From IMG/VR virus record IMGVR_UViG_3300027612_000506: 64,000 nucleotides of DNA; one strand, given 5' to 3'. Shown piece by piece: positions 1 to 64,000 of this stretch. The notes below the pieces were generated by a model, which was given only the letters and a program-made list of their open reading frames with translations, was not told where the DNA came from and did not search any database. The DNA is from an uncultured virus (IMG/VR IMGVR_UViG_3300027612_000506) (Duplodnaviria > Heunggongvirae > Uroviricota > Caudoviricetes). Every line of letters begins with the position of its first letter. The first letter of the stretch is position 1. Both the position numbers and the translations under genes were made by a program.

Positions 1-726
1 CCATATGGTACAAAAGAAGAGGCACTAGTATCTAAAAATAAGATGTATGGATTGCTACGGGAATATATGAATAGGCAACCTATAGATATAAACTCTATTG
101 ATTGGTCAGAACTTAATACCTGGGTGGATAACGGACCATATGAATTGCCTGATGTATATGGAGTTTCGGGTGAAACAGAAGAAAAAAAAGATGCCGCGAA
201 CTTTAGTAATAAGTGGTCACCTATAGTGGAAAATAATATTAGGGACAGTTACTTCAATGTAGTAGTTGAATCCCATTACGAACACACTAATCCTGGATTT
301 AGATATGACTCCAAATATTCGTACTTAGAGTTTTCACCAACCTTTATAACTGAAAAAACATATAAAGCAATCATGTGTCAAAGGCCTTTCATATTGTACG
401 CAGGTGCGTATGGGTTGAGACAATTAAGAAAGATGGGATTTAAAACATTTGCACCGTATATCAATGAGGAATATGATGAATGTCGAGATGACATTGAAAG
501 GATGCGTATGGTAGCAGATGAAATTGAAAGGTTATGCAATCTACCTGATGATGAGCTCAAAGATCTTTTTTATAACCATCTATTCCCCGTGGCAATATAC
601 AATCAAACAGTATTAAAAAAATATCAAAATCAGTTTACAGCAAAAAAATGGTTCCCAGAAATAGATTCATATTTCAGATACACTGCTAATCTGGATGATA
701 TCATACAAAAAGAACTTTATAAATAG
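1..726 (+). CDS. Glycosyltransferase-like protein (GT10/fucosyltransferase-like C-terminus), 5'-truncated by the window edge
   Basis: Frame is open from position 1; SYFNVVVES...FITEKTYK...PFI segment resembles the GT10-type EK motif. Confidence 0.45.
   Translation, partial: PYGTKEEALVSKNKMYGLLREYMNRQPIDINSIDWSELNTWVDNGPYELPDVYGVSGETEEKKDAANFSNKWSPIVENNIRDSYFNVVVESHYEHTNPGFRYDSKYSYLEFSPTFITEKTYKAIMCQRPFILYAGAYGLRQLRKMGFKTFAPYINEEYDECRDDIERMRMVADEIERLCNLPDDELKDLFYNHLFPVAIYNQTVLKKYQNQFTAKKWFPEIDSYFRYTANLDDIIQKELYK
718..725 (+). promoter_or_regulatory. T4-type late promoter TATAAATA
   Basis: Exact TATAAATA followed by an AGGAG RBS and the gp3 start; gp55 is encoded in the window. Confidence 0.8.
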
Positions 727-744
727 TCGTATAGGAGATAATAT

Positions 745-1332
745 ATGGCTTATAATCCAATAACAAATGTAGCAGAGGCAGGTTCATCAGGTGCAAACAA
801 CCCATCTGAACTTGATTATCTTCGCCCTAATGGATTTAAATTCCAAATCCATAATATCCCCAATGTGTCGTTTTTTTGCCAAGCGGCAAACATTCCTCAA
901 ATGTCACTTGGTCAACAAGAAGCACAGACACCTCTATCTAACCTATACTTCCCAGGTGAGAAGTTAGCTTTCGGTGAATTGGTTATCCGATTCTTAGTAC
1001 AAGAAGATATGGCTAATTACAAAGAGTTATATGATTGGATGGTTGGTTTAGGTTCGCCTGAAAACCATAAACAGTTTTCTGATTATGTTGACGGACAAAG
1101 ATTTAGGTTTCCCAACCAAAATTCTAAAACTAAAGACTTAGGTCAATTTAGTGATGCTACACTATTTGTGTTGGACTCAAACAATAATCCAAATGTAAAG
1201 TTTACATTTAAAGATGTGTTTCCCATCAGCCTGGAAGGATTAGATTTTGATATTAGTAGCGGTGACCAAAACTACTTTGTGGGTGTAGCGGCATTTAGGT
1301 ACCGGTTATTTAATATCGAAACGGTAACCTAA
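745..1332 (+). CDS. gp3: Tail completion / tail tube terminator (T4 gp3-like)
   Basis: YLRPNGFKF, FFCQAANIP and F-DVFPISL motifs; conserved position before uvsY. Confidence 0.8.
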   Translation: MAYNPITNVAEAGSSGANNPSELDYLRPNGFKFQIHNIPNVSFFCQAANIPQMSLGQQEAQTPLSNLYFPGEKLAFGELVIRFLVQEDMANYKELYDWMVGLGSPENHKQFSDYVDGQRFRFPNQNSKTKDLGQFSDATLFVLDSNNNPNVKFTFKDVFPISLEGLDFDISSGDQNYFVGVAAFRYRLFNIETVT

Positions 1333-1994
1333 TGAAACCAAATTTATTATGTGTAGGTAATGTGAAAGCTGGCTCAACATCACTTAATGAGACCTTAAAT
1401 CAACACTCTCAAATTTTTATGGCTAAAGAAAAAGAGATACACTTCTTTGACTTCAATTATGATAAGGGATTTGATTGGTATGAAAGTCACTTTAAACAGC
1501 ATACCAATGAATTGATTGTAGGTGAAACCACTCCAAACTATATGTATCGAGATATATTTTTAGATCGTATCTATAATTATGCAGACGACTTAAAAATTAT
1601 AGTCCTTATAAGGAACCCAATAGAAAGAGCGTTATCACATCACAATATGTTTTATCTAGGAGGAGTGGATAAATATACAACTATTACAGAATCTAATATG
1701 TTTAATTGGTATATGGAAAAATCACTATGTTATGATAGGATTAAACAACTAGAGGACCGGTATGATGTACTATGTGTTCAGACAGAGAAATTAGATCAAA
1801 GCTATAATATGATACAAAAATGGTTAGGGGTGGATAATGAGAATTTAATACCGGTTCGTGCTATGGTGGCACCATCTAAATTGGACATAGATATAGAGAC
1901 AAAGAAAACATTATTACCTTTCTTTAAAGATGAAATAGAAAACCTAGAAGAACATTTGGGATGGGATTTAAAAAATTACAAAACGGTCACATAG
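1332..1994 (+). CDS. PAPS-dependent sulfotransferase
   Basis: 5'PSB motif KAGSTSL, KEIHFFD, 3'PB motif RNPIERALS. Confidence 0.85.
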   Translation: MKPNLLCVGNVKAGSTSLNETLNQHSQIFMAKEKEIHFFDFNYDKGFDWYESHFKQHTNELIVGETTPNYMYRDIFLDRIYNYADDLKIIVLIRNPIERALSHHNMFYLGGVDKYTTITESNMFNWYMEKSLCYDRIKQLEDRYDVLCVQTEKLDQSYNMIQKWLGVDNENLIPVRAMVAPSKLDIDIETKKTLLPFFKDEIENLEEHLGWDLKNYKTVT

Positions 1995-2037
1995 TTCTTG
2001 ACTTTTGTACCGTTTGTTGCTATAGTATGTATAAATA
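1986..2037 (+). promoter_or_regulatory. Sigma70 promoter (TTGACT 1998, 17 bp, TATAGT 2021) with an upstream GTCA and a tandem late promoter TATAAATA (2030)
   Basis: Consensus boxes with 17-bp spacing upstream of uvsY. Confidence 0.75.
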
Positions 2038-2059
2038 AACACCTTGATATGAGTATAGT

Positions 2060-5470: not shown

Positions 5471-5499
5471 TTGACATCTCTTTAACTTTTGTGTATAGT
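5471..5499 (+). promoter_or_regulatory. Sigma70 promoter of queE (leaderless)
   Basis: TTGACA 5471, 17 bp, TATAGT 5494; ATG at 5507. Confidence 0.8.
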
Positions 5500-5506
5500 T
5501 TACATT

Positions 5507-6412
5507 ATGAATATTAAATACTCTGAAATTTTTTATAGCTTCCAAGGTGAAGCTGAACTTGCCGGCAAGCCATCTGTGTGGTTACGCTTCTTTGGTTGTA
5601 ACCTTGAATGTAATGGCTTTGGTCAAGATAACCCTGCCGATGAATCCTCATGGGAACTTCCCTTTAAGGATGCAGACTTGTCACTCATTAAAACAGTAGA
5701 AGAACTTCCTGTTTTTAGTAAGGGGTGTGATTCATCTTACTCCTGGTCAAATCGCTACAAACACTTATGTCCTTCCGAATCTGTAGAGGAAGTATGTGAT
5801 AAGATTGAAGCACAACTACCCAATGGTAGATTTGTACAGGATGAACATTCTCCTGGTGCAACTGATACAATGCTTTGTTTTACAGGTGGTGAACCTATGC
5901 TACGGCAAAAACATATGCAAGCAATTGTTGAGGAGTTTATTAAACGGGGTAACTGTCCTAAAACTGTAACTGTAGAAACAAATGGCACTAAGCCCATAAC
6001 TGGTGCATTTAAGGATTGGTTATCGCTTATCACTTATGAGTTGGACATGAGATGGCATTGGGCAATCAGTCCTAAACTTCTTCATACAGCAGGGGAAAAA
6101 GATGCAGTTATTCCCGATGTTATTGTAGGTTATGCAGATGCTTGTTCTAGAGTTACAACTATTCTAAAGTTTGTTTGTAACGGATCAGATGCATCTTGGA
6201 ATGAAATTGATGAGGCATTAAAAAATACTAGTTTAGAGTTTGCAGATATTTCTGATGTAGTATCTTTTCCCGATGTTTGGATTATGCCTGTAGGCGCTAC
6301 TAAAGAACAACAAGAAAGTGTTGTTGATATTGTAATGGAAACAATGCGGCGAGGGTACAAGGTAGCAACTCGTAATCACGCATATGTATTTGGAAATCAG
6401 ATAGGAACTTAA
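5507..6412 (+). CDS. queE: 7-carboxy-7-deazaguanine synthase (radical SAM)
   Basis: EIFYSFQGE, LRFFGCNLEC...GCDS, FTGGEP, ETNGT. Confidence 0.9.
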   Translation: MNIKYSEIFYSFQGEAELAGKPSVWLRFFGCNLECNGFGQDNPADESSWELPFKDADLSLIKTVEELPVFSKGCDSSYSWSNRYKHLCPSESVEEVCDKIEAQLPNGRFVQDEHSPGATDTMLCFTGGEPMLRQKHMQAIVEEFIKRGNCPKTVTVETNGTKPITGAFKDWLSLITYELDMRWHWAISPKLLHTAGEKDAVIPDVIVGYADACSRVTTILKFVCNGSDASWNEIDEALKNTSLEFADISDVVSFPDVWIMPVGATKEQQESVVDIVMETMRRGYKVATRNHAYVFGNQIGT

Positions 6413-6414: not shown

Positions 6415-6894
6415 ATGAAATATTCTATGGAATACCCCCATCTTCCTCAACCGCAATATGAATATGATATTACATACAATTTAGGTAATCCGCAAATTGA
6501 ATTATCTTGGAAGAATATTAATCGTATTGTAGATAAAATTGAAGCTCAAGTACGAGACAAAGGTTATACCGCTGTAGTAGGGCTTGCTCGAGGGGGTGTT
6601 GTACCTGCTATTATGTTGAGTCACCGATTAGGAATAAAGTTTGAATCGGTCACATGGCAAACACGGGATGGCGGGTTTCAGGAGATAGGTCGTCTAAATA
6701 ATATCGTTAACCGAGAAAAGGTTTTAATTGTAGATGATATTTGTGACTCTGGGTTAACACTAACACAAGTAAAAGCAAATCATCCAGATGCAGATGTTGC
6801 TGTGTTAGTGACCAAAGTGGACACAAAACTAGTTGACTTTGTAGGTGAGACATATTATAATGATAATCGTTGGGTAGTATTTCCTTGGGAGTAG
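6415..6894 (+). CDS. Type I phosphoribosyltransferase (Gpt-like)
   Basis: GLARGG, PRPP loop VLIVDDICDSGLT, C-terminal WVVFPWE. Confidence 0.9.
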   Translation: MKYSMEYPHLPQPQYEYDITYNLGNPQIELSWKNINRIVDKIEAQVRDKGYTAVVGLARGGVVPAIMLSHRLGIKFESVTWQTRDGGFQEIGRLNNIVNREKVLIVDDICDSGLTLTQVKANHPDADVAVLVTKVDTKLVDFVGETYYNDNRWVVFPWE

Positions 6895-6896
6895 AT

Positions 6897-7577
6897 ATGA
6901 AAATAAGTGACAAAATTAAACAGCGTCTTGAATTGGACGCATATCGGTATCATGCCGCGGATAATATTAGTCAGTATATACATGAGGGAGAACATACTCT
7001 TTTAATTGATGAAGTATCTGAAAAATTTGAGGCTGTATTACAGAGTCTTGTAATTGATACTGAGGATGATCCTAATAGTAATGGAACTGCTCGTCGTCTT
7101 GCTAAGATGTATATTAATGAAATTATGGGTGGTCGTTATTATCCTAGTCCTAAAGTAACATCATTTCCTAATGATGGGCAGTATGACCAACTAATAGTCG
7201 TTCGTTCTGATATTAAGTCGATGTGTTCTCATCATCACCAACCCGTAACAGGTATTTGTTATATCGCCTGTATGCCGGGTGAGAATCTTATTGGGCTGTC
7301 TAAGTACACCCGAATCGCACAACACCTTGCATCTCGTGGACACTTACAAGAAGAACTAACAGAAATGATTGCTAGTGAGATTGAGCGTCTTACACATTCA
7401 CCTGCTGTTGGTGTTTACATTAGAGCAAGACACGGGTGTTGTGAAAACCGTGGCATTCGTTCATCTAACAGTGCCACACAAACTACTGTTCTTAAGGGTG
7501 CATTAAAAAATGACCCTGCTCTAAAGAACGAGTTCATGCACAATATTCAAATACAGGAGAATTTGTGTAATGGATAA
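6897..7577 (+). CDS. folE: GTP cyclohydrolase I
   Basis: TARRLAKMY, SMCSHHH, GLSK, QEELT, HGCCENRG. Confidence 0.95.
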   Translation: MKISDKIKQRLELDAYRYHAADNISQYIHEGEHTLLIDEVSEKFEAVLQSLVIDTEDDPNSNGTARRLAKMYINEIMGGRYYPSPKVTSFPNDGQYDQLIVVRSDIKSMCSHHHQPVTGICYIACMPGENLIGLSKYTRIAQHLASRGHLQEELTEMIASEIERLTHSPAVGVYIRARHGCCENRGIRSSNSATQTTVLKGALKNDPALKNEFMHNIQIQENLCNG

Positions 7578-8322: not shown

Positions 8323-8867
8323 ACATTTTTTACTTGCATGAGAAGCCCGAAACTTGCGCTCAACTACATTGTGACAAGCATGTGGTTAAGATGATTATTG
8401 AGTATGCACAGTTGATGTCTACGGCACATCGTGTACTAGACGGTGACCTTTACAATGACAAGACTAAAAATGGTCGCAATATTAAACGGTGGCGCCTTAG
8501 TAGTGACAATGCCGAGTCTGTAATTTACAAAGCATCCCACATTAATCATCCTTCAGGTATTTGGACTCGTGCAACGGATGAAAATTACAAATGGCTTTAT
8601 GCGCTGTGGCTAGAATTGTGTAAAGAATACACACACCGTTATGGTAAGAAACATCTTACACAGGAAAAACTAGAGCATATACTATGTAACACTCCTACTA
8701 ACATTCCCTCTGGTCCTCTTACGGAAGTCCCACAGGCGATGCCCGATGATGTTAAGACAACAGATCCTATTAAGGCATATAAATCTTATTATCGTCAATA
8801 CAAACAGGCGTTTGCTAAATGGACAAACCGCCAGACACCAGAGTTTATGTTATGTCCCACACACTAG
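8319..8867 (+). CDS. Pyrimidine-dimer DNA glycosylase family (DenV-like)
   Basis: MNIFYL...HCDKHVVKM..EYAQL, HINHP, EYTHRYGK, PQAMP. Confidence 0.75.
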   Translation: MNIFYLHEKPETCAQLHCDKHVVKMIIEYAQLMSTAHRVLDGDLYNDKTKNGRNIKRWRLSSDNAESVIYKASHINHPSGIWTRATDENYKWLYALWLELCKEYTHRYGKKHLTQEKLEHILCNTPTNIPSGPLTEVPQAMPDDVKTTDPIKAYKSYYRQYKQAFAKWTNRQTPEFMLCPTH

Positions 8868-10120
8868 AATATGTAGTATCAGGCACAAGTTATATGCGTC
8901 TTAGCAATCCTCAGGTATCCAAGTCACCTGAGAATGTTGCTATGATTAATGACTTGTTCACAAAATTTGTACACAACCAGAAGGGACATACTTTTTCTGC
9001 TCTATACAATGCATATCAAGAGTCCAGTTTCGGTGAGAGATTTCAGCCGTATAAAAGTGCAATTAAAAATATACATGCAGACTCAGGTGGTTTGCAGATT
9101 GTTACTCTAGGCAAAACTATCACTGAGGAACTTAAAGATAAAATCTATGAAAATCAGGCTAAGTGGTCTGATGTAGGTATGTGCTTTGATGAGATTCCGG
9201 TTGTGTTGACTGATGGTAAGTCCGACAGAAATGATGTTAATGCAAGGTATTTTGACTTTGATAATTATGAGGAAATGGCTCGTAAGACAGGTCGAAATAT
9301 TAAACGACAATTAGAAATTTTTGAGAAAAACAATAGCACTTGTAAACCCTTTGCAATTTTACAAGGAAATTGTTATGACACTTATATGACCTGGTCAGAG
9401 CAATTGTTATCTGAGGTGCCTCAGGGCTGGCACGAGCGCATTGGTGGCATAGCAATGGGTGCGGCCGCACTAGGTACAGGTCCGCTAGAGGATGTTAAAC
9501 GAGCATTTATTGCTAGTCAGATTCCTTTGCGTAACAAACAAGGTAAACTACACTTACACATTCTAGGGGTAGGTTCTATTCGTAGACTTATTCCTTATCT
9601 TATCTTTTGTCAGAATGGATTGTACGACCACATCGAAATCTCATATGATAGTACAACACATAGTCGAGCGGCAGAGACAGGGCTATACTTTATGGGCGAT
9701 AAAACTATTAAGTATGGCAGAGAGTGGTCAGACTTGTATCAGACTTTTTATGATGACATCGAAAAGACTGAGCCAGTAGGGTGTAGCATAAAGGACTTTT
9801 ATGCTATTCTAAACTCAGGTTCAGAAAAATGGAAAGAGTCTGGTGGGGATTTTCACATGTGGCTTAGAGTAAGATACTTGTTTGTGTTGTCTAGTATTCG
9901 TAATTTTATGCATCGGGTTGACCAATTGATGAATGACCCAGAAGAAATTTTACGCTTTACGGGCAAACTGAAACTTGAACATCAATTTAGAAACCTGTAT
10001 AATGTAAAGACAGTCGAGGATTTTAAGCGATGGGAAAGCGACCAATACTTAGGGGGTAGCATGAAGTCGATGGCTGTTAAGAGTCAGGCACCTGCAACAT
10101 TGGAAGGATTATTTGGATGA
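8852..10120 (+). CDS. dpdA: TGT-fold base-exchange enzyme, DpdA-like (7-deazaguanine DNA insertion)
   Basis: TGT motifs ADSGGLQ, FDEIP, ILQG, HILGVG, SYDST; no C-terminal Zn-binding Cys cluster; inside the que cluster. Confidence 0.75.
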   Translation: MSHTLEYVVSGTSYMRLSNPQVSKSPENVAMINDLFTKFVHNQKGHTFSALYNAYQESSFGERFQPYKSAIKNIHADSGGLQIVTLGKTITEELKDKIYENQAKWSDVGMCFDEIPVVLTDGKSDRNDVNARYFDFDNYEEMARKTGRNIKRQLEIFEKNNSTCKPFAILQGNCYDTYMTWSEQLLSEVPQGWHERIGGIAMGAAALGTGPLEDVKRAFIASQIPLRNKQGKLHLHILGVGSIRRLIPYLIFCQNGLYDHIEISYDSTTHSRAAETGLYFMGDKTIKYGREWSDLYQTFYDDIEKTEPVGCSIKDFYAILNSGSEKWKESGGDFHMWLRVRYLFVLSSIRNFMHRVDQLMNDPEEILRFTGKLKLEHQFRNLYNVKTVEDFKRWESDQYLGGSMKSMAVKSQAPATLEGLFG

Positions 10121-10534: not shown

Positions 10535-11625
10535 TTTACTTAGTTGATCTTGAGTATGTAGAGTCTCGTTACACATCACAATGGAAAACAGAATTTCCTG
10601 CGCTTTTTAAGTGGCATGGTCTTGATGTGAAAGTCATTGAAGGTCCTGCTGATATTGCCGCATGTACTACACCAGGTGCGTTTCTTAACTTCTCAGGTAC
10701 AAATGTATATAAAGCAGAGCAAGTAAAAAGAATTGCCAACCTCTTTACATCTAATGATATTAAAGATGGTGACCAGTTTGTATTTGCGGATGCATGGCAC
10801 CCTGGTGTAATTAATCTTAAATATATGGCAGAACTATTAGGCATTAAGATTAAAATTCATGGTCTTTGGCATGCAGGTAGTTATGACTCTCAAGATTTTC
10901 TTGGTCGATTGATAGGCAATGCTGGATGGGTAAGACATGCTGAAAAAAGTATGTTTGAATGTTATGATTATAATTGGTTTGCTTCTGACTTTCACATTGA
11001 TTTGTTTATAGAGGAAATGCTTGATACAGATAAAAGAACTGGGCGTATTCGTTATATGGATACTGCAAAAGGTAAAATCTCAAAAACTGGTTGGCCTATG
11101 GATTATCTGCACAATGAGATCTCTTGCGATAAAGTAGGAACAAATAAAGATGATATAATTTTGTTCCCACATCGTATTGCACCTGAAAAACAACCAGAGA
11201 TTTTTGAGGACTTAGCAAACGAACTACCTGAATATCAATTTATCTTTTGTCAAAAAATGAATCTGTCTAAGAAAGAATATCATGCATTACTTGGTAAGGC
11301 AAAAATGGTATTCTCTGCTAACACGCAGGAAACATTGGGCATTGGTTGTTTCGAGGCTTTATGTGCAAATGCAATTCCATTAGTCCCAGATAGATTATCA
11401 TATACTGAGATGTACTATTCAGAGTTTAAGTATGACAGTGAATGGACTGAGAGTATGGATAGTTACATGAAACACAAGGAAAAACTTATTAGCCGTATTC
11501 GTAATTTAATGAGTAATTATAGTACAGATGCTGTACAAAGTGTAATAAATACAAATAGAGAATTTTTAGAATGTGATTATTTTTCTGCTGAAAGTCTAGT
11601 AGAAAAAATTAAAGAGGTGATGTAA
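10531..11625 (+). CDS. GT-B (GT4-like) glycosyltransferase
   Basis: HRIAPEKQP, SANTQETLGIGCFEA (E-x7-E), VPDRLSYTE. Confidence 0.8.
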   Translation: MIYLVDLEYVESRYTSQWKTEFPALFKWHGLDVKVIEGPADIAACTTPGAFLNFSGTNVYKAEQVKRIANLFTSNDIKDGDQFVFADAWHPGVINLKYMAELLGIKIKIHGLWHAGSYDSQDFLGRLIGNAGWVRHAEKSMFECYDYNWFASDFHIDLFIEEMLDTDKRTGRIRYMDTAKGKISKTGWPMDYLHNEISCDKVGTNKDDIILFPHRIAPEKQPEIFEDLANELPEYQFIFCQKMNLSKKEYHALLGKAKMVFSANTQETLGIGCFEALCANAIPLVPDRLSYTEMYYSEFKYDSEWTESMDSYMKHKEKLISRIRNLMSNYSTDAVQSVINTNREFLECDYFSAESLVEKIKEVM

Positions 11626-12083
11626 TGTATTATTCAACAAAGACTTATGGACACGAACGCGGCTTATCTTGTGCGTTTAGACAACCCCTAGCTAGTCATT
11701 CACACTGTAGTCTTATTCATGGTTACAGTCTCGCTTTCAGTTTTAAATTTGCCGCTAGAAACCTAGATGATAAAAACTGGGTAGTAGACTTTGGCGGTCT
11801 TAAGGATCTCAAAAATTGGCTAGAGAAAATGTTTGACCACACATTGGCTGTGGATAAAGATGATGTTAATCTCAAAGATTTTCTAGAGTTAGAAGAAAAG
11901 GGCTTGGCTGTTGTTCGTGTTATGAATGGTGTCGGGTGTGAGAAATTTGCCGAACATGCTTTCTGGTTTGCTGATGAGTTAGTCAAGACAATGACTGATG
12001 GTAGATGTCGTTGTGTTTATGCTGAGTGTAGGGAACATGGCGCAAACTCAGGCATTTATGAACCAGAGGTAATTGAAATTTGA
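11625..12083 (+). CDS. queD: 6-carboxy-5,6,7,8-tetrahydropterin synthase
   Basis: HCSLIHGY, WVVDFG, FDHT, GCEKFA. Confidence 0.9.
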   Translation: MYYSTKTYGHERGLSCAFRQPLASHSHCSLIHGYSLAFSFKFAARNLDDKNWVVDFGGLKDLKNWLEKMFDHTLAVDKDDVNLKDFLELEEKGLAVVRVMNGVGCEKFAEHAFWFADELVKTMTDGRCRCVYAECREHGANSGIYEPEVIEI

Positions 12084-16341: not shown

Positions 16342-18558
16342 ATGGAAATTGCACAGAAGAGCACATTAGCAAAGTTACTAGCCGCAGAAAATATATCGGT
16401 TGAGCACCGTAAGGTCTCAACCGCGGCTTTTGACCTCAAATCTCGCAAGATCATCCTACCCATTTGGAAGACAATGGACAATGACCTTTACGATATGCTT
16501 ATCGGTCACGAGGTAGGTCATGCATTGTACACCCCCCTAGAAGGTTGGCACGATGAGGTATCCGAAAAGGGTCAAGGCTTCAAGTCGTTTCTCAATGTCA
16601 TTGAGGACGCTCGTATTGAGCGTAAGATTAAGGACAAGTTCCCAGGCCTAGTTCGTAACTTTTACAAAGGTTATCAGAACTTATACGCCAATGACTTCTT
16701 CGGCATTAAAGGTCGAGATATTGATGCCCTCCCTCTAATTGACCGCATTAACCTACATTATAAGATAGGTAGTATGGCGGGTATTAATTTCACTGCCGAG
16801 GAACAGTCCTATATTAATCGTATTGACCTTGCCGAAACATGGGAAGATGTTATGGCGATTGCCAACGATCTGTTTGAATACTCGAAAGAAGAACCTGAGA
16901 TGCAGGACATGTTAGATGACCTTCAATACTCAGATGAGTATGACGATGAGGACGAGGAAGATAATGATATGTCCTCTGGTGCAGGTGATGACGATGAGGA
17001 CGAGGATGAAGAAGAACAGGAAGAAGCTAATGATTCCTCAGGCACTGCTCCTCGGTCAAACACAGATGAGAAAGAAGAAGTGGAAGACGAGTCTGCTCCC
17101 CAAGAACAAGGTGAGAGCAAAACACCCCAGTCATTTACAGATCAAAATTTCCGTGAAAGCGAGGACCGCCTTTTAGATAAGGGCGCCGACGATATCCTGT
17201 ATGCAAAGTTTCCTAAAATGAATATCAAGCGGTGCGTGATGCCCATTAAAGATGTATGGGACACAGAGTTTGAGGGGGTGTTTAAGCCTACATACCACTC
17301 AGAAGAAGATATTCCTTGGACTGAAATTGCAGATGAAGCGTGGAGCGAGTTTAATCTCAAGAATGCTTCTTACATTAATACACTTGTCCAGCAGTTTGAG
17401 ATGAAGCGTAAGGCTAGTGAGTTTGCCAAGGCTCGTCAAAACAAGACAGGTAAGCTAAATGTAGATAAGCTCTGGGCGACACGGTTGACCGAGGATGTGT
17501 TCTTGTCAAACACTGTAGTTCCTAAAGGCAAAAACCACGGTATGATGATGTTCATTGATTTTTCAGGTTCAATGAACCAGGACTTAGAATCTACTATTGA
17601 GCAGACATTGATTCAGATTAGTTTTTGTAAAAAAGTGAATATTCCTTTTGATGTTTATTCATTCACCACTAGCTCTAAAGGTATATGCAAACCTGGCGAG
17701 TCATATCGCGAGTCTCTTGCCATTGCAAATAATGGATTTGAGCCAGGTAAACTTGCAATGGTAAAAGAGGATCTTCAGATTAATCACTTGATGTCTTCCT
17801 CATTGGACGCCGCAACATATAAAAAAGTATTCCGCAAAATGCTAACATTGGCGAAGGCTATGGCTCCTAGAAGTTGGCACCGCGGACCAGAAAGTATAAA
17901 TGAACGATATATTGGGCGTTACCATTTGCCTGACCAACTAGGATTGGGAGGCACACCGCTTGCCGAGACTACTCTTGTAGCCCGTGACCTTATTAAGGAG
18001 TTCCGCAATAAACACAATGTTGAGGTGATGAATGTAATTTTCCTCACAGATGGTGATGCAACAGGTGAACTAGAAGTCCCTGATGGACAATCCTTACGCA
18101 AGGTTGGCTCTATTGCAATTACTGAAGGTGCAGTTACAACGGAATACAAATTCCGAGACTTGTTTTGGGCGCGGTATGGGGGTGATGTGTGGTATCGTGC
18201 GGTACTGAAACACCTTAAAAATACAGTAGATTGTAATTTGATTAACCTGCACATTGGTAGTTTCAAACGCCGTGACCTAATGGACATGTTCATTACAGCA
18301 CCGGACTATGAATACTCCAAGTTTGAGGAGAAGTACAAAAAAGAATGGACTGCCAATAAATTCTTTGAGCTTGAGAACTTCAAAGAGTTTGATGTGATGT
18401 ATGCCATTAAGAATGGTAACAACCTCAAGGTTGACGATGAGGGCTTGACCGTTAAGTCAGATTCCAAGAGTGATGTACTTCGAGGATTCAAGAAGTTTCA
18501 GAAAAATAAGACTACCAGCCGAGTATTCCTGAATAGGTTTATTGATAAGGTAGCCTAA
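16342..18558 (+). CDS. CobT-like protein: HExxH metallopeptidase-like N-terminus, acidic linker, VWA domain
   Basis: HEVGH, NVIEDARIE, MIDAS DFSGS...GGTP...LTDG; paired with a MoxR/CobS ATPase. Confidence 0.8.
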   Translation: MEIAQKSTLAKLLAAENISVEHRKVSTAAFDLKSRKIILPIWKTMDNDLYDMLIGHEVGHALYTPLEGWHDEVSEKGQGFKSFLNVIEDARIERKIKDKFPGLVRNFYKGYQNLYANDFFGIKGRDIDALPLIDRINLHYKIGSMAGINFTAEEQSYINRIDLAETWEDVMAIANDLFEYSKEEPEMQDMLDDLQYSDEYDDEDEEDNDMSSGAGDDDEDEDEEEQEEANDSSGTAPRSNTDEKEEVEDESAPQEQGESKTPQSFTDQNFRESEDRLLDKGADDILYAKFPKMNIKRCVMPIKDVWDTEFEGVFKPTYHSEEDIPWTEIADEAWSEFNLKNASYINTLVQQFEMKRKASEFAKARQNKTGKLNVDKLWATRLTEDVFLSNTVVPKGKNHGMMMFIDFSGSMNQDLESTIEQTLIQISFCKKVNIPFDVYSFTTSSKGICKPGESYRESLAIANNGFEPGKLAMVKEDLQINHLMSSSLDAATYKKVFRKMLTLAKAMAPRSWHRGPESINERYIGRYHLPDQLGLGGTPLAETTLVARDLIKEFRNKHNVEVMNVIFLTDGDATGELEVPDGQSLRKVGSIAITEGAVTTEYKFRDLFWARYGGDVWYRAVLKHLKNTVDCNLINLHIGSFKRRDLMDMFITAPDYEYSKFEEKYKKEWTANKFFELENFKEFDVMYAIKNGNNLKVDDEGLTVKSDSKSDVLRGFKKFQKNKTTSRVFLNRFIDKVA

Positions 18559-18636
18559 GTCCTTGATTCATTTGAGGAAAAGAGTTTGTATTTTGGTCAT
18601 AAAGTGCTTGACTTCCGAGTAAAAAGAGTCCATAAT
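18556..18636 (+). promoter_or_regulatory. IHF site (18556-18568) plus early promoter TTGACT(18608)-17-CATAAT
   Basis: TAAGTCCTTGATT matches YAANNNNTTGATW. Confidence 0.75.
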
Positions 18637-18683
18637 ACATGTATAGTTAGAAAGTTAGACATTTACTTGTGAGGAGTTATATT

Positions 18684-19844
18684 ATGTCAGATCGTCAAAC
18701 ACTTTTAAATACACTGGGTAACATTGACAACGGTACGGGTGTCTTCACTCGCATTGAGGTTATTGAAGCGGCTAAGAACGCAGGGCTTAAATTCCCTCAC
18801 TGGTTCTTCCGTGAGAACAAGGTTGCCCGTAACCAATATGCATTGAACATGCAGGGTGTGGTGGTTCCTATGCAGGCTAAACCCCAGACTCCTGTTATGA
18901 CAATTGAACCTCAGGAGGCTAAGGTAGTGACACAGGCTAAACTAGCGGTCGAGGTGGACAACCTTGTCCCCGTGGCTGATGCTACTTATGTGCCGTTTGG
19001 TTTCAGTAAGGACTTGACCCAGATTCTCAAGTCCCGAATGTTTTATCCTACTTTCATCTCAGGCTTGTCAGGTAACGGCAAGACTACGATGGTAGAACAG
19101 ACTTGCGCTAAGTTGAAGCGTGAGGCTATCCGAGTAAACATCTCAATTGAGACGGACGAGGATGACCTCATTGGTGGTAATACACTGGTCGATGGTAATG
19201 TTGTTTACCGTGAGGGTCCAGTACTTACCGCAATGAAGCGAGGCGCAGTTCTTATCCTTGATGAGTTGGACCGCGGTTCAAACAAGTTGATGTGCCTACA
19301 AGCCATCCTCGAGGGTAAGGCTTACTTTAATAAAAAGACAGGCGAGATGGTTACTCCTGCTCCTGGATTCAATGTCATTGCAACGGCTAATACAAAAGGC
19401 CGCGGTTCAGATGATGGCAAGTTCATGAGTGCTCAAATTCTAGATGAGGCATTCCTAGAACGGTTTGCAATCACAGTTGAGCAGGAGTACCCATCTCAGG
19501 CGCAGGAGAAAAAGATTATTCTCGGCAAGATGCAGAAGGCAGGCAAGCTGGATGAGGACTTTGCGGAGAAGCTAGTCACCTGGGCTGATATTATCCGTAA
19601 GACATTCTATGAGGGTGCTATTGAAGAGCTCATCAGTACCCGTCGATTAGAACACATTGTCAATGCATATGCAATGTTCAATGACCGCATGAAAGCTATT
19701 GAGCTTTGTGTTAACCGCTTTGATGCAGATACTAAGTCTGCGTTTACAGAGCTATACACTAAGGTTGATTCAGGTGTACTAGGCACTGAGGATGAAGTGG
19801 CTGATGTTGAGAGCCCAGAAGAAGTAGAAGGAGTATCATTCTAA
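18684..19844 (+). CDS. MoxR/CobS-like AAA+ ATPase
   Basis: GLSGNGKT, LILDE, ATANT, AFLERF, STRRL. Confidence 0.85.
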   Translation: MSDRQTLLNTLGNIDNGTGVFTRIEVIEAAKNAGLKFPHWFFRENKVARNQYALNMQGVVVPMQAKPQTPVMTIEPQEAKVVTQAKLAVEVDNLVPVADATYVPFGFSKDLTQILKSRMFYPTFISGLSGNGKTTMVEQTCAKLKREAIRVNISIETDEDDLIGGNTLVDGNVVYREGPVLTAMKRGAVLILDELDRGSNKLMCLQAILEGKAYFNKKTGEMVTPAPGFNVIATANTKGRGSDDGKFMSAQILDEAFLERFAITVEQEYPSQAQEKKIILGKMQKAGKLDEDFAEKLVTWADIIRKTFYEGAIEELISTRRLEHIVNAYAMFNDRMKAIELCVNRFDADTKSAFTELYTKVDSGVLGTEDEVADVESPEEVEGVSF

Positions 19845-20131
19845 TGAGTAAAAAAGTTTACAAGTTCCGTGAAGATGAGTTGATTGAGGAATTTAAAAAG
19901 TATATTGATTCTACTTACAAAGGTCACTATGGTCAAGGCGGACTTCAGTCCGCTGAGATCATTATAGATAGGGGTCATGGTCAAGGATTCTTTCATGGCA
20001 ATATCGACAAGTATAATGACCGCTACGGCAAAAAGGGTGATACCCCAGATGAATGGCGTAAGGATATTGTGAAGACTATTCACTATGGATTTCTTGCTTT
20101 GTATGAACACGATAGAGTTCACGGCAAGTAA
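19844..20131 (+). CDS. Conserved phage hypothetical protein (DUF3310-like)
   Basis: YIDSTY.GHY, GNIDKY.DRYGKKG. Confidence 0.6.
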   Translation: MSKKVYKFREDELIEEFKKYIDSTYKGHYGQGGLQSAEIIIDRGHGQGFFHGNIDKYNDRYGKKGDTPDEWRKDIVKTIHYGFLALYEHDRVHGK

Positions 20132-20137
20132 ACGGTT

Positions 20138-20197
20138 TGGGGCGGCGGTGTGACTCTAACTCTCTCTCCTCACTATGACACCGCCGTCCCATCTTTT
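20138..20197 (+). terminator. Intrinsic terminator: 14-bp GC-rich stem, 26-nt C/U-rich loop, short U tract
   Basis: TGGGGCGGCGGTGT pairs with ACACCGCCGTCCCA, followed by TCTTTT. Confidence 0.75.
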
Positions 20198-20204
20198 ATA
20201 AATA
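20197..20204 (+). promoter_or_regulatory. Late promoter TATAAATA
   Basis: Exact motif upstream of 20238. Confidence 0.7.
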
Positions 20205-20237
20205 ATTAACTATTTAAATGTTGTAAGGAATAAAATA

Positions 20238-20561
20238 ATGCCAGATATAAAAATTGTTGTTACCCGAGAGAGTATTAGTGACCAATGGCCTGCTGAACAA
20301 TCTTCGGATACGGAAGCCTACGCATTAGCGACAGTACAGGCGGCACAAAATGGTGATCACAATTGCGAGATGTCTTTTATTATAAGTGAGGACGGACTAA
20401 GCAAAGAACTTACTCTTGAATTTCCTACAACCGCAGATAGAGATGCATGGTGGGCGGATACACTAGACACCGAACTGGACGCAAAACTAAACGCCCGAAA
20501 CGATGATTCAGATAACCCTGTAACCTATTGGGCAGGTAATGCGGAAGATTATCCTAGCTAG
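20238..20561 (+). CDS. Acidic late hypothetical protein
   Basis: AAGGA RBS and late promoter. Confidence 0.6.
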   Translation: MPDIKIVVTRESISDQWPAEQSSDTEAYALATVQAAQNGDHNCEMSFIISEDGLSKELTLEFPTTADRDAWWADTLDTELDAKLNARNDDSDNPVTYWAGNAEDYPS

Positions 20562-20565
20562 TTTG

Positions 20566-20607
20566 GTCACCTCGTAGGTTGACTTTCCTAGTCTTTTATA
20601 TTATATT
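20566..20607 (+). promoter_or_regulatory. Sigma70 promoter of gp45 with upstream GTCA
   Basis: TTGACT 20579, 17 bp, TATATT 20602. Confidence 0.65.
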
Positions 20608-20640
20608 ATGATTATTAACTAATGAAACTGTGGAGTTTAT

Positions 20641-21303: not shown

Positions 21304-21313
21304 GGAGTATGCG

Positions 21314-21931: not shown

Positions 21932-21934
21932 ACT
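21906..21934 (+). promoter_or_regulatory. Sigma70 promoter of gp44
   Basis: TTGACT-17-TAAACT. Confidence 0.55.
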
Positions 21935-21968
21935 CTCACTATTAAATATATTATGATTGAGGTGAATT

Positions 21969-23992: not shown

Positions 23993-24004
23993 TTAGGATA
24001 TAAT

Positions 24005-24163
24005 ATGATTAATAAAGACCCAGGTAAAAGACATTTTTATATTAGCATTGTCAAAAGTGTATTGCGGTTCGCCGCATGTGGCTACTTGTATGTAGGTAAT
24101 TATGAGGGAGCCGCTCTCTTTTTGTTCTCGGCAGAAGTATTAGGAATTGCTGAGGAGATTTAA
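24005..24163 (+). CDS. Small membrane protein (52 aa, not in the ORF track)
   Basis: MINKDPGKRHFYISIVKSVLRFAAC...AEVLGIAEEI; AGGA RBS; stop overlaps the next ATG. Confidence 0.65.
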   Translation: MINKDPGKRHFYISIVKSVLRFAACGYLYVGNYEGAALFLFSAEVLGIAEEI

Positions 24164-25369: not shown

Positions 25370-25375
25370 GTAAAG

Positions 25376-25383
25376 TATAAATA
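25376..25383 (+). promoter_or_regulatory. Late promoter TATAAATA upstream of regA
   Basis: Exact motif, intergenic. Confidence 0.6.
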
Positions 25384-26974: not shown

Positions 26975-26985
26975 TTGCTATATTG

Positions 26986-55691: not shown

Positions 55692-57490
55692 TGGCAAAAC
55701 AAGATTATATGGGTATTCAAATTGACCCTTCCCGGGATGAACTATTTGACAAGCTGGGACTTAACCGGTTAAAAGAAAGTTATATGCGAGATGATGAGAC
55801 ATCTCCACAACAAAGGTTTGCGTATGTAAGTAAACAATTTGGATCTAATCCTGAACACGCACAGAGGCTTTATGAATATTCTAGTAAACATTGGTTGTCT
55901 TATAGTACCCCTATTCTATCTTATGGTCGCAGTAAGCGCGGCATGCCTATTTCTTGTTTTCTTAACTACATTGAAGATACAGCGGAAGGGCTTGTCCAAA
56001 ACTATTCTGAGACCTCTTGGCTCTCTATGCTTGGGGGTGGTGTTGGTATTGGGTTTGGGATTCGTGCGGCAGACGATAAGTCAACAGGAGTTATGCCCCA
56101 TCTTAAAACCTACGATGCAAGTTCCTTGGCTTATCGACAAGGCCGCACTAGACGAGGAAGTTATGCCGCTTACCTAGATATTTCACATCCCGACATCGGA
56201 ATGTTCCTCGAGATGCGTAAACCTACTGGTGACCCAAACATGCGCTGTCTCAATCTCCATCACGGTATCAATATCAGTGATCGCTTTATGGAAATTGTTG
56301 AACGCTGTATGACTGATCCTAACGCCGACGATGGTTGGAATTTGTGTGACCCCCACACTGGTGAAGTAAGAGATACTGTATCAGCGAAGGCACTGTGGCA
56401 AAAGATTCTAGAGTTGCGTATGGAGACCGGTGAACCATACATTCATTATATTGACACAAGCAATCGTTTGATGCCTGAGTTTCAGAAAGAACTTGGGTTG
56501 AAAATCCATCAGTCAAATCTTTGCTCTGAAATTATCCTACCTACAAACGAACAAAGAACCGCTGTATGCTGTTTGTCATCTGTTAACTTAGAATACTATG
56601 ATGCTTGGTCGAAGGATCCTATGTTCCTCAAAGACATGGCAGAGATGTTAGACAATGTGTTACAGTTCTTTATTGACAATGCTCCAGACGCTGTAGCAAG
56701 AGCTAAGTTTTCTGCTACACAAGAAAGGAGTATTGGTATCGGAGCATTGGGATTCCATGCCTATCTACAGAAAAAGAATCTTGCATGGGAAGGCGCTATT
56801 GCTAAAGGCGCTAACATGAGAATGTTTAAGTTAATTAGGAGCAAATTGGATGAAGCAAATATTGAACTTGGTAAAGAGCGAGGCGAGGCTCCTGATGCAA
56901 AGGGCACAGGCAGAAGATTTAGTCATGTTATGGCTATCGCTCCCAATGCTAGTAGTAGTATTATTATGGGAAACACTTCGCCGTCCATTGAACCATATCG
57001 TGCAAACGCATATCGTCAGGACACACTTAGCGGTGCGTATCTCAACAAAAATAAGCATTTGGATAATCTCATTAAGAGTAAAATTGAAGAAAATCCAAAG
57101 ATTGATTATGATGAAACTTGGTCTTCAATAATTGCAAATGATGGGTCAGTACAACATCTAAAATTCTTGGATGAATATGAGAAAGATGTATATAAAACAT
57201 CAATGGAAATTGACCAGCGGTGGGTAATTGAACATGCGGCTGATAGACAGGTATTTATCGACCAAGCACAATCGCTGAACTTGTTCTTCCGCCCTGATAC
57301 AAACATTAAGTATCTACATGCCGTACATTACCTAGCATGGAAACAGGGATTGAAAACTTTATATTATTGCCGTTCAGAAAAACTCGGTAAAGCAGACAAA
57401 GTGTCTAACCGAATTGAGCGACAAATTATTAAAGAAATTGATATGAGTAGTTTGGTAAATGATGAAGAATGCCTGGCCTGCGAAGGCTAA
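55691..57490 (+). CDS. nrdA: Class I ribonucleotide reductase alpha subunit (no ATP cone)
   Basis: PISCF, SNLCSEI, APNASSS, TLYY, C-terminal CLACEG. Confidence 0.95.
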   Translation: MAKQDYMGIQIDPSRDELFDKLGLNRLKESYMRDDETSPQQRFAYVSKQFGSNPEHAQRLYEYSSKHWLSYSTPILSYGRSKRGMPISCFLNYIEDTAEGLVQNYSETSWLSMLGGGVGIGFGIRAADDKSTGVMPHLKTYDASSLAYRQGRTRRGSYAAYLDISHPDIGMFLEMRKPTGDPNMRCLNLHHGINISDRFMEIVERCMTDPNADDGWNLCDPHTGEVRDTVSAKALWQKILELRMETGEPYIHYIDTSNRLMPEFQKELGLKIHQSNLCSEIILPTNEQRTAVCCLSSVNLEYYDAWSKDPMFLKDMAEMLDNVLQFFIDNAPDAVARAKFSATQERSIGIGALGFHAYLQKKNLAWEGAIAKGANMRMFKLIRSKLDEANIELGKERGEAPDAKGTGRRFSHVMAIAPNASSSIIMGNTSPSIEPYRANAYRQDTLSGAYLNKNKHLDNLIKSKIEENPKIDYDETWSSIIANDGSVQHLKFLDEYEKDVYKTSMEIDQRWVIEHAADRQVFIDQAQSLNLFFRPDTNIKYLHAVHYLAWKQGLKTLYYCRSEKLGKADKVSNRIERQIIKEIDMSSLVNDEECLACEG

Positions 57491-58070
57491 AGAAATAGCA
57501 AATAATATCCCCAGAGACAAACGAATTGCAGTAGTTGTCTCTGGGGGTTGGGATAGTGCCGTGTTATGGCACATTGTTTATAATGAGTGTCTTGAGCGCA
57601 GACAAAGTTGTCGCCCATATACTGTACCTAAATTAGATGGGGCTGTACATTGGGCTAATCAAGTATTAACACTATCAGGTTATACCGACACAACAAATGT
57701 TATAGGTAGTGTTGATGCTGAAGATCCCTCTAAATATGTTGCAAGCGGCATCATTGATATCTTTGAAAAGGGATTAGCTGATATTGTTTATGTGGGAGTA
57801 ACGAAATATTATGAAGGTATGGAACCCGACCACGATAGACAACATGCAAGTCAATACAATGCCGAGGATAAATGCCTACAACCTTTTTCTAATATGACAA
57901 AGGATGAGACTGTACAGTTAGGTTTTGATTTGGGTATTGCACAGGGACTGATGCATACCACGCATAGTTGCACAGAACAGGATGTTGGTAGGTGCCAATA
58001 TTGCCAGTGGTGTAAGGAGCGAGAATGGGCATTCAATGCCATTGGTAAAATAGATGAAGGAAGAAACTAA
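57459..58070 (+). CDS. QueC-like PP-loop ATPase
   Basis: VSGGWDS; THSC...RCQYCQWCKER zinc motif. Confidence 0.7.
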   Translation: MMKNAWPAKAKEIANNIPRDKRIAVVVSGGWDSAVLWHIVYNECLERRQSCRPYTVPKLDGAVHWANQVLTLSGYTDTTNVIGSVDAEDPSKYVASGIIDIFEKGLADIVYVGVTKYYEGMEPDHDRQHASQYNAEDKCLQPFSNMTKDETVQLGFDLGIAQGLMHTTHSCTEQDVGRCQYCQWCKEREWAFNAIGKIDEGRN

Positions 58071-62201: not shown

Positions 62202-63156
62202 AGAATATTTTAAACCTTTTAATTATCCTTGGGCTTATGATGCTTGGTTAAAACATGAGCAGTCTCACTGGCTACACACCGAAGTCCCTATGGCAGAGGA
62301 TGTAAAGGACTGGAAAAACAAACTAACTAAAGCCGAACAAGCCTTTCTAACTAATATCTTTCGTTTCTTTACACAGGGTGATATTGATGTTGCGGGTGGT
62401 TATGTGACAAATTACCTGCCTCACTTCCCACAGCCTGAGGTTCGCATGATGCTTGCAGGGTTTGCGGCAAGAGAAGCATTACATGTTGCGGCTTATTCGC
62501 ACCTCATAGAGACCTTAGGAATGCCAGAGAGCACCTACAATGAGTTTCTTGAGTATGAGGCTATGAAGGACAAGCATGAATACTTTATGGAACTGTCTAA
62601 CATGGATGCAGACAAGAAAACAGTAGCAACAAACATTGCCGCTTTTTCTGCATTTACTGAAGGCATGCAGTTATTCTCCTCGTTTATTATGTTGCTGAAC
62701 TTCCCTCGACACGGCAAAATGAAAGGCATGGGTCAGATTGTTACTTGGTCAATTGTTGATGAGACAATGCACGCCGAGTCAATGATTAAACTGTTCCGTA
62801 CCTATGTTGAGGAAAACCTAGAGATTTGGAACGATGACCTCAAAGGTAAGATCTATTCTATTGCTGAGAAGATGGTAGAGCTTGAGGATAAATTTATTGA
62901 CCTGGCATTTGCCATGGGTCCAATGGAAAATCTTTCATCCGAAGATGTTAAGAAATATATCAGATATATCTGTGACCGCAGACTCATTAGTCTTGGTCTT
63001 AAAGGTATTTTTAAAATTAAAAAGAATCCTCTACTGTGGGTTGAGGAAATGATTAACGCACCAACACATACAAACTTCTTTGAAAACCGAGCAACAGACT
63101 ATGCCCGAGGCGCATTGTCAGGTGATTGGGGAGATGTATGGGGTTCTGCGGCGTAG
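62170..63156 (+). CDS. nrdB: Ribonucleotide reductase beta subunit
   Basis: FFTQGD, EALH..AY, TEG..LFSSF, DETMH, NFFE. Confidence 0.95.
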   Translation: MSKKQNLQEPREYFKPFNYPWAYDAWLKHEQSHWLHTEVPMAEDVKDWKNKLTKAEQAFLTNIFRFFTQGDIDVAGGYVTNYLPHFPQPEVRMMLAGFAAREALHVAAYSHLIETLGMPESTYNEFLEYEAMKDKHEYFMELSNMDADKKTVATNIAAFSAFTEGMQLFSSFIMLLNFPRHGKMKGMGQIVTWSIVDETMHAESMIKLFRTYVEENLEIWNDDLKGKIYSIAEKMVELEDKFIDLAFAMGPMENLSSEDVKKYIRYICDRRLISLGLKGIFKIKKNPLLWVEEMINAPTHTNFFENRATDYARGALSGDWGDVWGSAA

Positions 63157-63165
63157 GAGAATTTA

Positions 63166-63336
63166 ATGCCTAAAGCCAATAAATGGTTAGAATGCATTTC
63201 GTGTGAGGCGATGTTTACTGTAAAGCATAGTATGGATATAGAATTCTATACTGTAGAGCATTGCCCTTTCTGCGGAGATGAGCTTGATATTGAAGTTGGG
63301 TTGGATTATGACGAAGAAGAAGAGGATTACGAATGA
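63166..63336 (+). CDS. Small zinc-ribbon protein (56 aa, not in the ORF track)
   Basis: CISC...CPFCG, acidic tail, AGGAG RBS. Confidence 0.65.
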   Translation: MPKANKWLECISCEAMFTVKHSMDIEFYTVEHCPFCGDELDIEVGLDYDEEEEDYE

Positions 63337-63512
63337 GCCAATGGCATGGCGGGAAGGGCAGTAAGCCTAGAAAAGTTACAGACCAGGATCAGTTTGATTC
63401 CAATTGGGATTTAATTTTTGGCAAAAAGGATCAAAAAGTCAAACAGGCAATGGTGACAGATCTCAATTGGGACGGTGAAGAAGAGGAAGAGCCTAAAACA
63501 GATGACGGCTAA
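63333..63512 (+). CDS. Small hypothetical protein (59 aa, not in the ORF track)
   Basis: WHGGKGSKPR...NWDLIFG; ATGA coupling. Confidence 0.6.
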   Translation: MSQWHGGKGSKPRKVTDQDQFDSNWDLIFGKKDQKVKQAMVTDLNWDGEEEEEPKTDDG

Positions 63513-64000
63513 ATATTGTATAGCCCCCTTTGCAATGTATGAAATGCATGTTGATGGGGGGGATAGTGTTTGCTGTCCCTCTCATAACAATCACCCTGAA
63601 CTCCAAGGCAATACTATTCTTGAGAAGTTTAATAGTTCTCAAGCAAAGGTTATCCGCGAGTCGGTATTAGATGGTTCATATAGGTATTGCAAAGATAGTT
63701 GCCCCTTCCTATATTCCCACCGTCAGGGTGCTGAAAACTTACTGTTTAGAGATGTTGAACCATATAAGGACAATACAGCACCTTTGCATGTAGTGTCTGC
63801 TGAAGATAGAACTTGTAATTTGGCATGCCCCACATGCCGTAAGGATTTCATTCTAGATGATGAGTCTGGTAGAGACATAGAAAGGGAATTATCAGAAATA
63901 TCTGAAAGTGTTACCACCTTTGTAACTTCTGGCTCAGGTGACCCACTTTATAACAAACGCACATTCAAACTATTACAGAGCCTAACGCCTGAAAACTATC
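63502..64000 (+). CDS. Radical SAM enzyme with N-terminal twitch/SPASM domain, 3'-truncated by the window edge
   Basis: YCIAPF...VCC, CNLACPTC, SGSGDP. Confidence 0.75.
   Translation, partial: MTAKYCIAPFAMYEMHVDGGDSVCCPSHNNHPELQGNTILEKFNSSQAKVIRESVLDGSYRYCKDSCPFLYSHRQGAENLLFRDVEPYKDNTAPLHVVSAEDRTCNLACPTCRKDFILDDESGRDIERELSEISESVTTFVTSGSGDPLYNKRTFKLLQSLTPENY

Follow-up and report, generated by a model that had tools for sequence, protein, structure and literature searches.

The question addressed here is why the tetranucleotide ACGT should be missing from a 64,000-nucleotide (nt) stretch of DNA, hereafter the window, belonging to an uncultured virus of the class Caudoviricetes (IMG/VR record IMGVR_UViG_3300027612_000506). 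The window, which has a G+C content of 39% and carries all of its sizeable open reading frames (ORFs) on the + strand, comes from an uncultured aquatic myovirus of the T4-like type and constitutes its replication and metabolism module. An earlier note on this DNA had reported the word as missing and had read its loss as a fingerprint of the restriction enzymes of the host. The results described below make it likely that the avoidance of ACGT is driven by a Type II restriction enzyme of the host, with the specificity of MaeII.

ACGT is absent from the window

An exact count returned no ACGT in the window, a result that covers both strands because the word is a palindrome. The trinucleotide ACG occurs 396 times and is followed by A (159 times), C (107) or G (130), but never by T, while CGT occurs 337 times and is preceded by C (115), G (86) or T (136), but never by A. 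All 16 NACGTN contexts are empty, and the 3,265 nt of non-coding DNA in the window, with 17 ACG and 19 CGT, likewise contain no ACGT. A maximal-order Markov model predicted 80.5 sites, and base composition 221; the Poisson probability of finding none when 80.5 are expected is 1e-35. As a further null model, synonymous codons were shuffled 200 times, ORF by ORF, over 90 + strand ORFs covering 95% of the window, keeping the proteins and the codon usage of each gene. The shuffled sequences contained 139 ± 9.6 copies of ACGT, with a minimum of 117. The claims of the earlier note that ACGT is missing from the 64 kb, and that no ACG is followed by T, are thus correct to the letter, and the count is nowhere near its Markov expectation.

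The absence is not an artefact of assembly, since five contigs (L001–L004 and L083; L numbers designate the related viral-contig loci of this analysis), among whose names there are four dataset prefixes, differ from the window by no more than one mismatch in 22.5 kb, and since the ORFs are intact and conserved. Contig L083 extends the window by 1,753 nt upstream and is free of ACGT there too. Contigs located with the genes at the end of the window provided no downstream extension, the best match for the small subunit of ribonucleotide reductase (RNR) being 91%, and record G001 sits wholly inside the window (16057–55177) and adds no sequence. A search for single-nucleotide polymorphisms inside the lineage of the window gave no signal, the contigs being identical. 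The absence of ACGT is therefore real and far beyond chance.

ACGT is avoided by codon choice

The loss of ACGT is made entirely by the choice of codons. The word can arise in coding DNA as NAC|GTN, ACG|TNN or NNA|CGT; as each of these frame classes can be avoided synonymously, the purge costs no change in protein sequence. Asn, Asp, Tyr and His are encoded by NAT in all 228 pairs in which they precede Val (AAT 67, AAC 0; GAT 89, GAC 0; TAT 50, TAC 0; CAT 22, CAC 0), although the C-ending codons of these residues account for 32–40% of their uses elsewhere and for 17–36% before other codons starting with G. The remark of the earlier note that Asn-Val, Asp-Val and Tyr-Val pairs use AAT, GAT and TAT was accurate, with no C-ending codon among them. 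Although CGT is used more often for Arg than any other codon (208 times), it is not found once after a codon ending in A, a position in which the five other Arg codons stand 200 times; the Lys, Glu and Gln codons that precede CGT end in G in 21 of 21 cases. The Thr codon ACG is used 62 times, never before a T.

To follow individual sites, the window was compared with nine ACGT-bearing relatives, in which six core genes hold 142 ACGT sites. The window encodes identical amino acids at 103 of these, and at the remaining 39 the residues differ. The replacements had followed varied routes, namely a change to ATGT (41 sites), an exchange of the Arg codon, a change in the third base of the preceding codon, or an exchange of the Thr codon.

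These replacements bear on a purely mutational explanation, in which each infection would convert ACGT into A(m5C)GT (m5C, 5-methylcytosine) and deamination would then erode the sites without any selection. In favour of such decay, m5C deaminates to T. The methylation of MaeII-type systems is, in addition, of the m5C kind (PMC10113651). However, the products of this decay, ATGT and ACAT, are not in excess, these one-step neighbours being found at expectation (observed/expected ratio, O/E, of 1.00 and 1.04, respectively), while other words of the NCGN type are (CCGT, TCGT, ACGA and ACGG; O/E 1.3–1.6). This argues against erosion by deamination of m5C and in favour of selection on the word itself. 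In addition, many of the homologous replacements do not correspond to C>T or G>A at the CpG, having yielded AGA, CGA/CGC/CGG or an altered preceding base instead, and decay does not produce an exact zero from about 80–139 expected sites. Mutational decay is thus disfavoured, and we regard it as extremely improbable.

The purge recurs among related viruses, which have lost different words

A total of 240 related loci were collected using gp43, tail-tube-like and RNR small-subunit queries. A locus was considered purged of a word if it had zero copies where at least five were expected, and the counts of loci are counts of contigs, not of events. ACGT was totally absent from 13 of 80, 16 of 78 and 7 of 80 loci in the three query sets (36 in total). 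With the three sets summed, zero copies were found for GGCC in 37 loci, for GTAC in 34, for CCGG in 21, for CGCG in 17, for AGCT in 16 and for GATC in six. As an internal control, no locus in which at least five copies were expected had lost TCGA, CATG, TGCA, GCGC, AATT, ATAT or TATA. The GTAC-free lineages include L106–L129, L141–L145 and L163–L164. Some loci combine two purges: ACGT and AGCT (L130–134, L199), ACGT and GATC (L185, L211, L234), or ACGT and GGCC (L094–097, L103–105).

A tree of the gp43 proteins was built with 71 rows, corresponding to the window, 69 loci and Synechococcus phage S-SM2 as an outgroup. Of 81 loci, 11 were left out as duplicates of the window lineage or because they were truncated (L002–4, L015, L024, L033, L041, L051, L062, L063 and L076); in 28 rows, the one or two stop symbols present in the raw tblastn range were set to gaps. 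The tree comes from a quick IQ-TREE search, with support from the Shimodaira–Hasegawa-like approximate likelihood-ratio test (SH-aLRT) only. The 11 ACGT-free tips fell into three separate clades (those starred in the tree), all of which have ACGT-bearing sisters. The first contains the window and L001, and its sister L026 is half depleted (11 sites compared with 24, P = 0.002). The second comprises L034–37, whose sisters L043–50 have about 0.75 of the expected sites. The third consists of L064–66 and L068–69, with sisters (L025, L077) at expectation. A further clade (L071, L073, L080) is partly depleted in ACGT. Fitch parsimony required a minimum of three changes for the ACGT-free state, and of two for the GATC-free state. 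Judging from this tree, the ACGT purge appears to have arisen at least three times among these relatives.

In L026, the closest sister lineage (11,240 nt), eight of the 11 surviving ACGT sites lie in AACGTA, where about two were expected; all eight are on the coding strand, in mixed frames, and TACGTT is absent, a pattern noticed post hoc. In a nearly ACGT-free clade (L154, L157, L158, L159 and L162; 0–3 sites per locus compared with 7–38 expected), AGACGT accounts for four of the six distinct survivors; the 5′ flanks, pooled for the two strands, had G nine times (3.2 expected) and T zero times (4.3 expected), although these are small numbers.

A host restriction enzyme is the most probable selecting agent

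The explanation proposed is that this phage regularly infects a host that makes an orthodox Type II endonuclease like MaeII, recognising the 4-bp word ACGT. A chromosome devoid of ACGT would be uncuttable by this enzyme, every site present would be a lethal target, and new mutations creating ACGT would be removed by selection. The earlier note had described ACGT as a site of the MaeII/HpyCH4IV/TaiI type; HpyCH4IV and TaiI are isoschizomers of MaeII. MaeII itself cuts A^CGT, with m5C as the protective methylation (PMC10113651), so that this part of the assignment stands. Orthodox Type II sites are reported to be completely or nearly completely eliminated in about one tenth of viral genomes, mostly those of non-temperate dsDNA phages (PMC6286503).

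DNA methyltransferases of the C5, N4/N6 and Dam types (PF00145, PF01555 and PF02086) were sought in 42 related records, 20 of which are free or nearly free of ACGT and 22 of which are not; two of the 42 are complete genomes. Each of the three families was found in 0 of the 42, which points to the loss of sites, rather than their methylation, as the way followed by this clade. Among the window ORFs, no methyltransferase or Type II-like restriction nuclease was recognised with Pfam, PHROGs or NCBIfam. The trait varies between close relatives, others of which have purged GTAC, GATC, AGCT or CGCG, as host-specific pressure predicts. From this pattern we infer both the selecting agent, a host restriction enzyme, and the class of that enzyme. 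The earlier note's proposal, in which the lost word fingerprints the restriction repertoire of the host, is hence reasonable, the purge being synonymous, accompanied by the depletion of other palindromes, lineage-specific and recurrent.

The nuclease could instead be the phage's own. An ACGT-specific enzyme encoded by the phage, used for example to degrade host DNA and lacking a matching methylase, would require that the phage genome be devoid of the word. The window does contain nucleases of other kinds, i.e. a SNase-like ORF (5039–5467, + strand) and the gp46/47 nuclease genes (12080–14811, + strand), and about 100 kb of the genome lies outside the sequence seen, which amounts to about 40% of a genome of this size. 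However, the SNase-like ORF is also present in L085, which bears ACGT, and the window ORFs include no recognised restriction-like nuclease or methyltransferase. In the regions compared, no gene was common to all ACGT-free clades yet missing in their sisters. A methyltransferase kept by the ACGT-bearing relatives and lost by the ACGT-free ones would also be compatible with self-avoidance, but the 42 records contain none of the three families. Finally, that many other palindromes are depleted too is more in keeping with exposure to host enzymes. Avoidance of a phage-encoded nuclease is therefore considered very unlikely.

Several points weigh against restriction by the host. No cognate ACGT restriction–modification (R-M) system was seen. 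The sequence covered amounts to about 66 kb, compared with 162–172 kb in complete relatives, and a phage-borne nuclease may lie elsewhere in the genome. Loci of the same lineage are not independent, so that more loci are counted than there were events, and the gp43 tree is the product of a quick search supported by SH-aLRT values alone. A further difficulty comes from the possible nature of the host. The window has traits described for pelagimyophages (PMC7029224), namely a peptide deformylase in the DNA-metabolism operon and Asp/Asn hydroxylases, and the same study states that, of over 100 SAR11 genomes, a single one encodes an R-M system. Strong restriction pressure would not be expected from a SAR11 host, so that either the phage infects another host or the R-M systems of SAR11 are under-sampled. 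The 39% G+C of the window exceeds the 30–35% range used for pelagimyophages in that work.

The feature is of a known kind, a textbook anti-restriction strategy, of which the window is an unusually clean and extreme case. As in the cases surveyed by Rusinov et al. in 2018 (PMC6286503), a 4-bp orthodox Type II palindrome has been fully eliminated, and other palindromes of the Type II sort are depleted beside it. The cases in that survey pair the site with an R-M system of the host, whereas the window phage is known without such a pairing. Beyond that survey, the complete loss of this word is seen on at least three separate occasions in close uncultured relatives, and other 4-mers are purged in sister lineages. 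This lineage-by-lineage, recurrent choice of different fully purged 4-mers within one uncultured clade is mildly new; in the literature searched (titles and starts of abstracts), no report of ACGT avoidance by T4-like phages of marine or fresh waters was found. With respect to the MaeII R-M system of Methanococcus aeolicus (PMC10113651), the recognition sequence is the word missing from the window, and none of the 16 NACGTN contexts is present, as would be required by an enzyme recognising 4 bp. No homologue of MaeII was found, no search aimed at one having been made; the real enzyme may be unrelated in sequence and come from an aquatic bacterium.

A cultured relative offers a comparison. Phage Melnitz (MZ577097.1), a Kyanoviridae-like phage of OM43 (Methylophilales), has the same layout of the replication module as the window, and its gp41 is 63% identical. 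In positions 1–50000 of its record (L243), GATC (4 copies compared with 176), CGCG (0 compared with 17) and CCGG (3 compared with 15) are purged; unlike the window, Melnitz keeps ACGT (96 compared with 132). It also differs in having, directly after gp43, a gene for an HhaI-like C5 methyltransferase, followed by an unannotated ORF of 328 amino acids (aa). Neither this methyltransferase nor its neighbour has a homologue in the window or in 242 other loci.

If host restriction is responsible, the hosts of this clade of abundant uncultured phages would possess a variety of 4-bp restriction systems, differing between lineages. The m5C protection of MaeII-type systems at ACGT is not directly detected in methylome surveys by single-molecule real-time (SMRT) sequencing (PMC10113651, PMC8919816), and k-mer purges in phages may consequently offer an independent read-out of m5C systems. 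They might also provide a handle for pairing uncultured phages with their hosts.

The 7-deazaguanine genes do not co-vary with the purge

The window encodes a set of genes related to preQ0 and 7-deazaguanine synthesis, all on the + strand. They specify a QueE-like radical-SAM protein (5489..6412; phrog_2076, 4.9e-48; NCBIfam QueE models at 1.8e-13 or weaker, all below their cut-offs), a phosphoribosyltransferase of the xanthine/hypoxanthine type (6415–6894), a GTP cyclohydrolase I (FolE, the first step towards preQ0; 6870..7577; Pfam PF01227, 1.6e-38), and a QueD-like 6-pyruvoyl-tetrahydropterin synthase (11625..12083; Pfam PTPS, 5.1e-12). At a distance from these lies a QueC-like ORF (57459..58070) in which only the C-terminal ~60 residues match (Pfam QueC, 6.1e-10, residues 138–195; TIGR00364, 4.2e-8, below the cut-off). 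The ORF at 8819..10120 (433 aa) is a candidate guanine transglycosylase of the DpdA-like type with a tRNA-guanine transglycosylase (TGT) fold. By sequence it remains below the cut-off (TIGR00430, E = 4.2e-7), and searches of the PDB with the ORF or a profile gave nothing useful. When its AlphaFold model (predicted local distance difference test, pLDDT, 76.7) was compared with the PDB using Foldseek, the top 50 matches were all tRNA-guanine transglycosylases (best E = 6.5e-10, template-modelling scores 0.48–0.57). From this modelled fold, and by analogy with the 7-deazaguanine systems of phages, the protein is plausibly a DpdA-like DNA-guanine transglycosylase. Two further ORFs, of 117 aa (10117–10470) and 364 aa (10531–11625), are conserved together with the preQ0 cluster and lack an assigned function. 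The whole set lies within the T4-like replication module, and its conservation extends to many relatives but not to every one.

The cluster is present in ACGT-free clades (the lineage of the window; L087/094/096/105; L154/158/159), equally present in ACGT-normal relatives (L085, L088–098, L106–112, L124 and L147–152), and absent from the ACGT-free clade L130–134. It therefore does not co-vary with the ACGT purge and is a neighbour of the finding, not its explanation. The earlier note had supposed that ACGT had to be eliminated because the G of CGT lies outside a protected context; the distribution of the cluster lends this no support, and since no ACGT survives in the window, no protected context can be read from it.

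That supposition corresponds to a motif-specific shield in which the DpdA-like enzyme would replace G by a 7-deazaguanine in some sequence contexts and ACGT, left uncovered, would be eliminated. The window provides candidates for the genes that this would need, coding for FolE, QueD, the QueE-like and QueC-like proteins and the TGT-fold protein. Phage 7-deazaguanines are reported to protect DNA from restriction (PMC6884629), and motif specificity is reported for DpdA, which follows a strict GA motif in phage iggy (PMC10484667), while two motifs are given for CAjan (PMC7544227). In common with these phage systems, the window has FolE, QueD and a QueE-like protein, with a partial QueC-like protein and the TGT-fold protein; the difference is that the TGT-like protein of this putative system is below the family cut-offs by sequence and that the cluster does not co-vary with the loss of ACGT. 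However, the same distribution of the cluster among ACGT-free and ACGT-normal clades, and its lack in L130–134, count against the shield. Moreover, cluster-bearing lineages have purged ACGT, GGCC, GATC or GTAC, which leaves no consistent context of shielded G, and the modified base may, as far as the genes tell, be destined for tRNA instead of DNA. We consider a shield of this kind a very unlikely cause of the purge. It is also conceivable, though doubtful, that the purged words are the complement of a motif-specific shield of this phage clade, every lineage deleting exactly those sites of its host that the shield leaves uncovered. Were this so, the barcodes formed by ACGT, GTAC, GATC, AGCT and CGCG would report the restriction repertoire of the host, including m5C systems missed by SMRT sequencing, together with the DpdA motif.

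Other words depleted or retained in the window

Several palindromes other than ACGT are under-represented in the window compared with the synonymous shuffle. Five hexamers are absent: AAGCTT (22.8 expected; 9.8–22.8 over the null models), ATCGAT (15.4), TGCGCA (6.0), GCTAGC (5.7) and GTCGAC (5.1). Five tetramers are reduced: GGCC (27 observed, 87 expected), GATC (80 observed, 186 expected; 184–186 over the null models), AGCT (102 observed, 206 expected), TCGA (103 observed, 175 expected) and CGCG (37 observed, 73 expected; 37–41 compared with 67–73 over the different counts). CATG, GTAC and TGCA are not depleted, being found at the synonymous-shuffle expectation. Among the other sites named in the earlier note, AAGCTT is indeed absent and GATC is depleted by about half, but GCNGC (143 copies, 155 expected under the Markov model) is not avoided.

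The contexts in which the partly purged words survive deviate only for GATC and CGCG. Surviving GATC has G as its 5′ neighbour 53 times compared with 35.5, and T 34 times compared with 50.6; surviving CGCG has C 48 times compared with 30, and A six times compared with 19. This bias is largely explained by the absence of the hexamers TGATCA, CGATCG and ACGCGT, and the survivor contexts in the window gave no clear signal of a shield. CCGCGG holds 14 of the 41 copies of CGCG counted in the window, compared with 14.0 expected under the Markov model (3.3 from base composition); ACGCGT, by contrast, does not occur. These copies of CCGCGG, at 14 positions from 2254 to 54894, are scattered within genes, in mixed frames and without a wider common motif.

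Gene content of the window

The T4-like module of the window encodes UvsY, UvsW, gp55, gp47/46, gp45, gp44, gp62, RegA, gp43, UvsX, gp41 and gp61. Its core block (16342..34302, + strand) comprises a peptidase, CobS, gp45, gp44, gp62, RegA, Hsp20, gp43, a MazG-like protein, UvsX and gp41, and it shares its order of genes between the peptidase and gp41 with cyanomyovirus S-SM2. The gp43 family-B DNA polymerase (26983..29523, + strand; Pfam DNA_pol_B, 2.1e-36), which served as a marker for relatives, has its best cultured match in S-SM2 (50% identity). Nucleotide metabolism is represented by a class I RNR and ThyX. The auxiliary genes, of kinds usual in marine cyano- and pelagimyoviruses, include sugar-nucleotide enzymes, radical-SAM cassettes, 2-oxoglutarate/Fe(II) (2OG-Fe(II)) and Asp/Asn hydroxylases, and the genes for peptide deformylase, CobS, Hsp20, a MazG-like protein and TauD. 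Among the ORFs of the 64 kb seen, none was recognised as an integrase, and the phage is presumably virulent, judging from its T4-like type.

A megablast search with 12 kb of the window against the phage collection found no near-identical cultured phage. As regards the host, the best cultured matches, which are of low identity, are split among cyanophages, pelagiphage Mosig, whose deformylase is 42% identical to that of the window, and OM43 phage Melnitz; gp41 is 65% identical to that of a Synechococcus phage, compared with 63% for Melnitz. A cyanobacterial host is doubtful because psbA and psbD are missing from five records of relatives, among which is a complete genome of 162 kb; the host is thus probably not a cyanobacterium. 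When the epimerase (59032–59964) was compared with genome contigs, the one match (26%), in a metagenome-assembled genome of Woesearchaeota, was uninformative about the host.

The junction between gp44 and gp62 is a variable insertion slot, with gaps of –9 to 2408 nt across relatives. In the window (22904–24921) it is occupied by a radical-SAM/Cys-rich ORF and a cytidylyltransferase-cupin ORF, in L034–36 (L034, 5196–7604) by a radical-SAM ORF and a TauD-like ORF, and in L069 (2800–4031) by a TauD-like ORF. The radical-SAM ORF of the window (22904–23992) was considered as a possible cause of the ACGT purge and discarded, as it is not a nuclease and is present in two of the three ACGT-free clades, the third having the TauD-like ORF instead.

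Just upstream of gp43, a 58-aa ORF (26487–26663) resembles the chlamydial histone H1-like protein Hc1 (Pfam PF07432, E = 2.3e-9).

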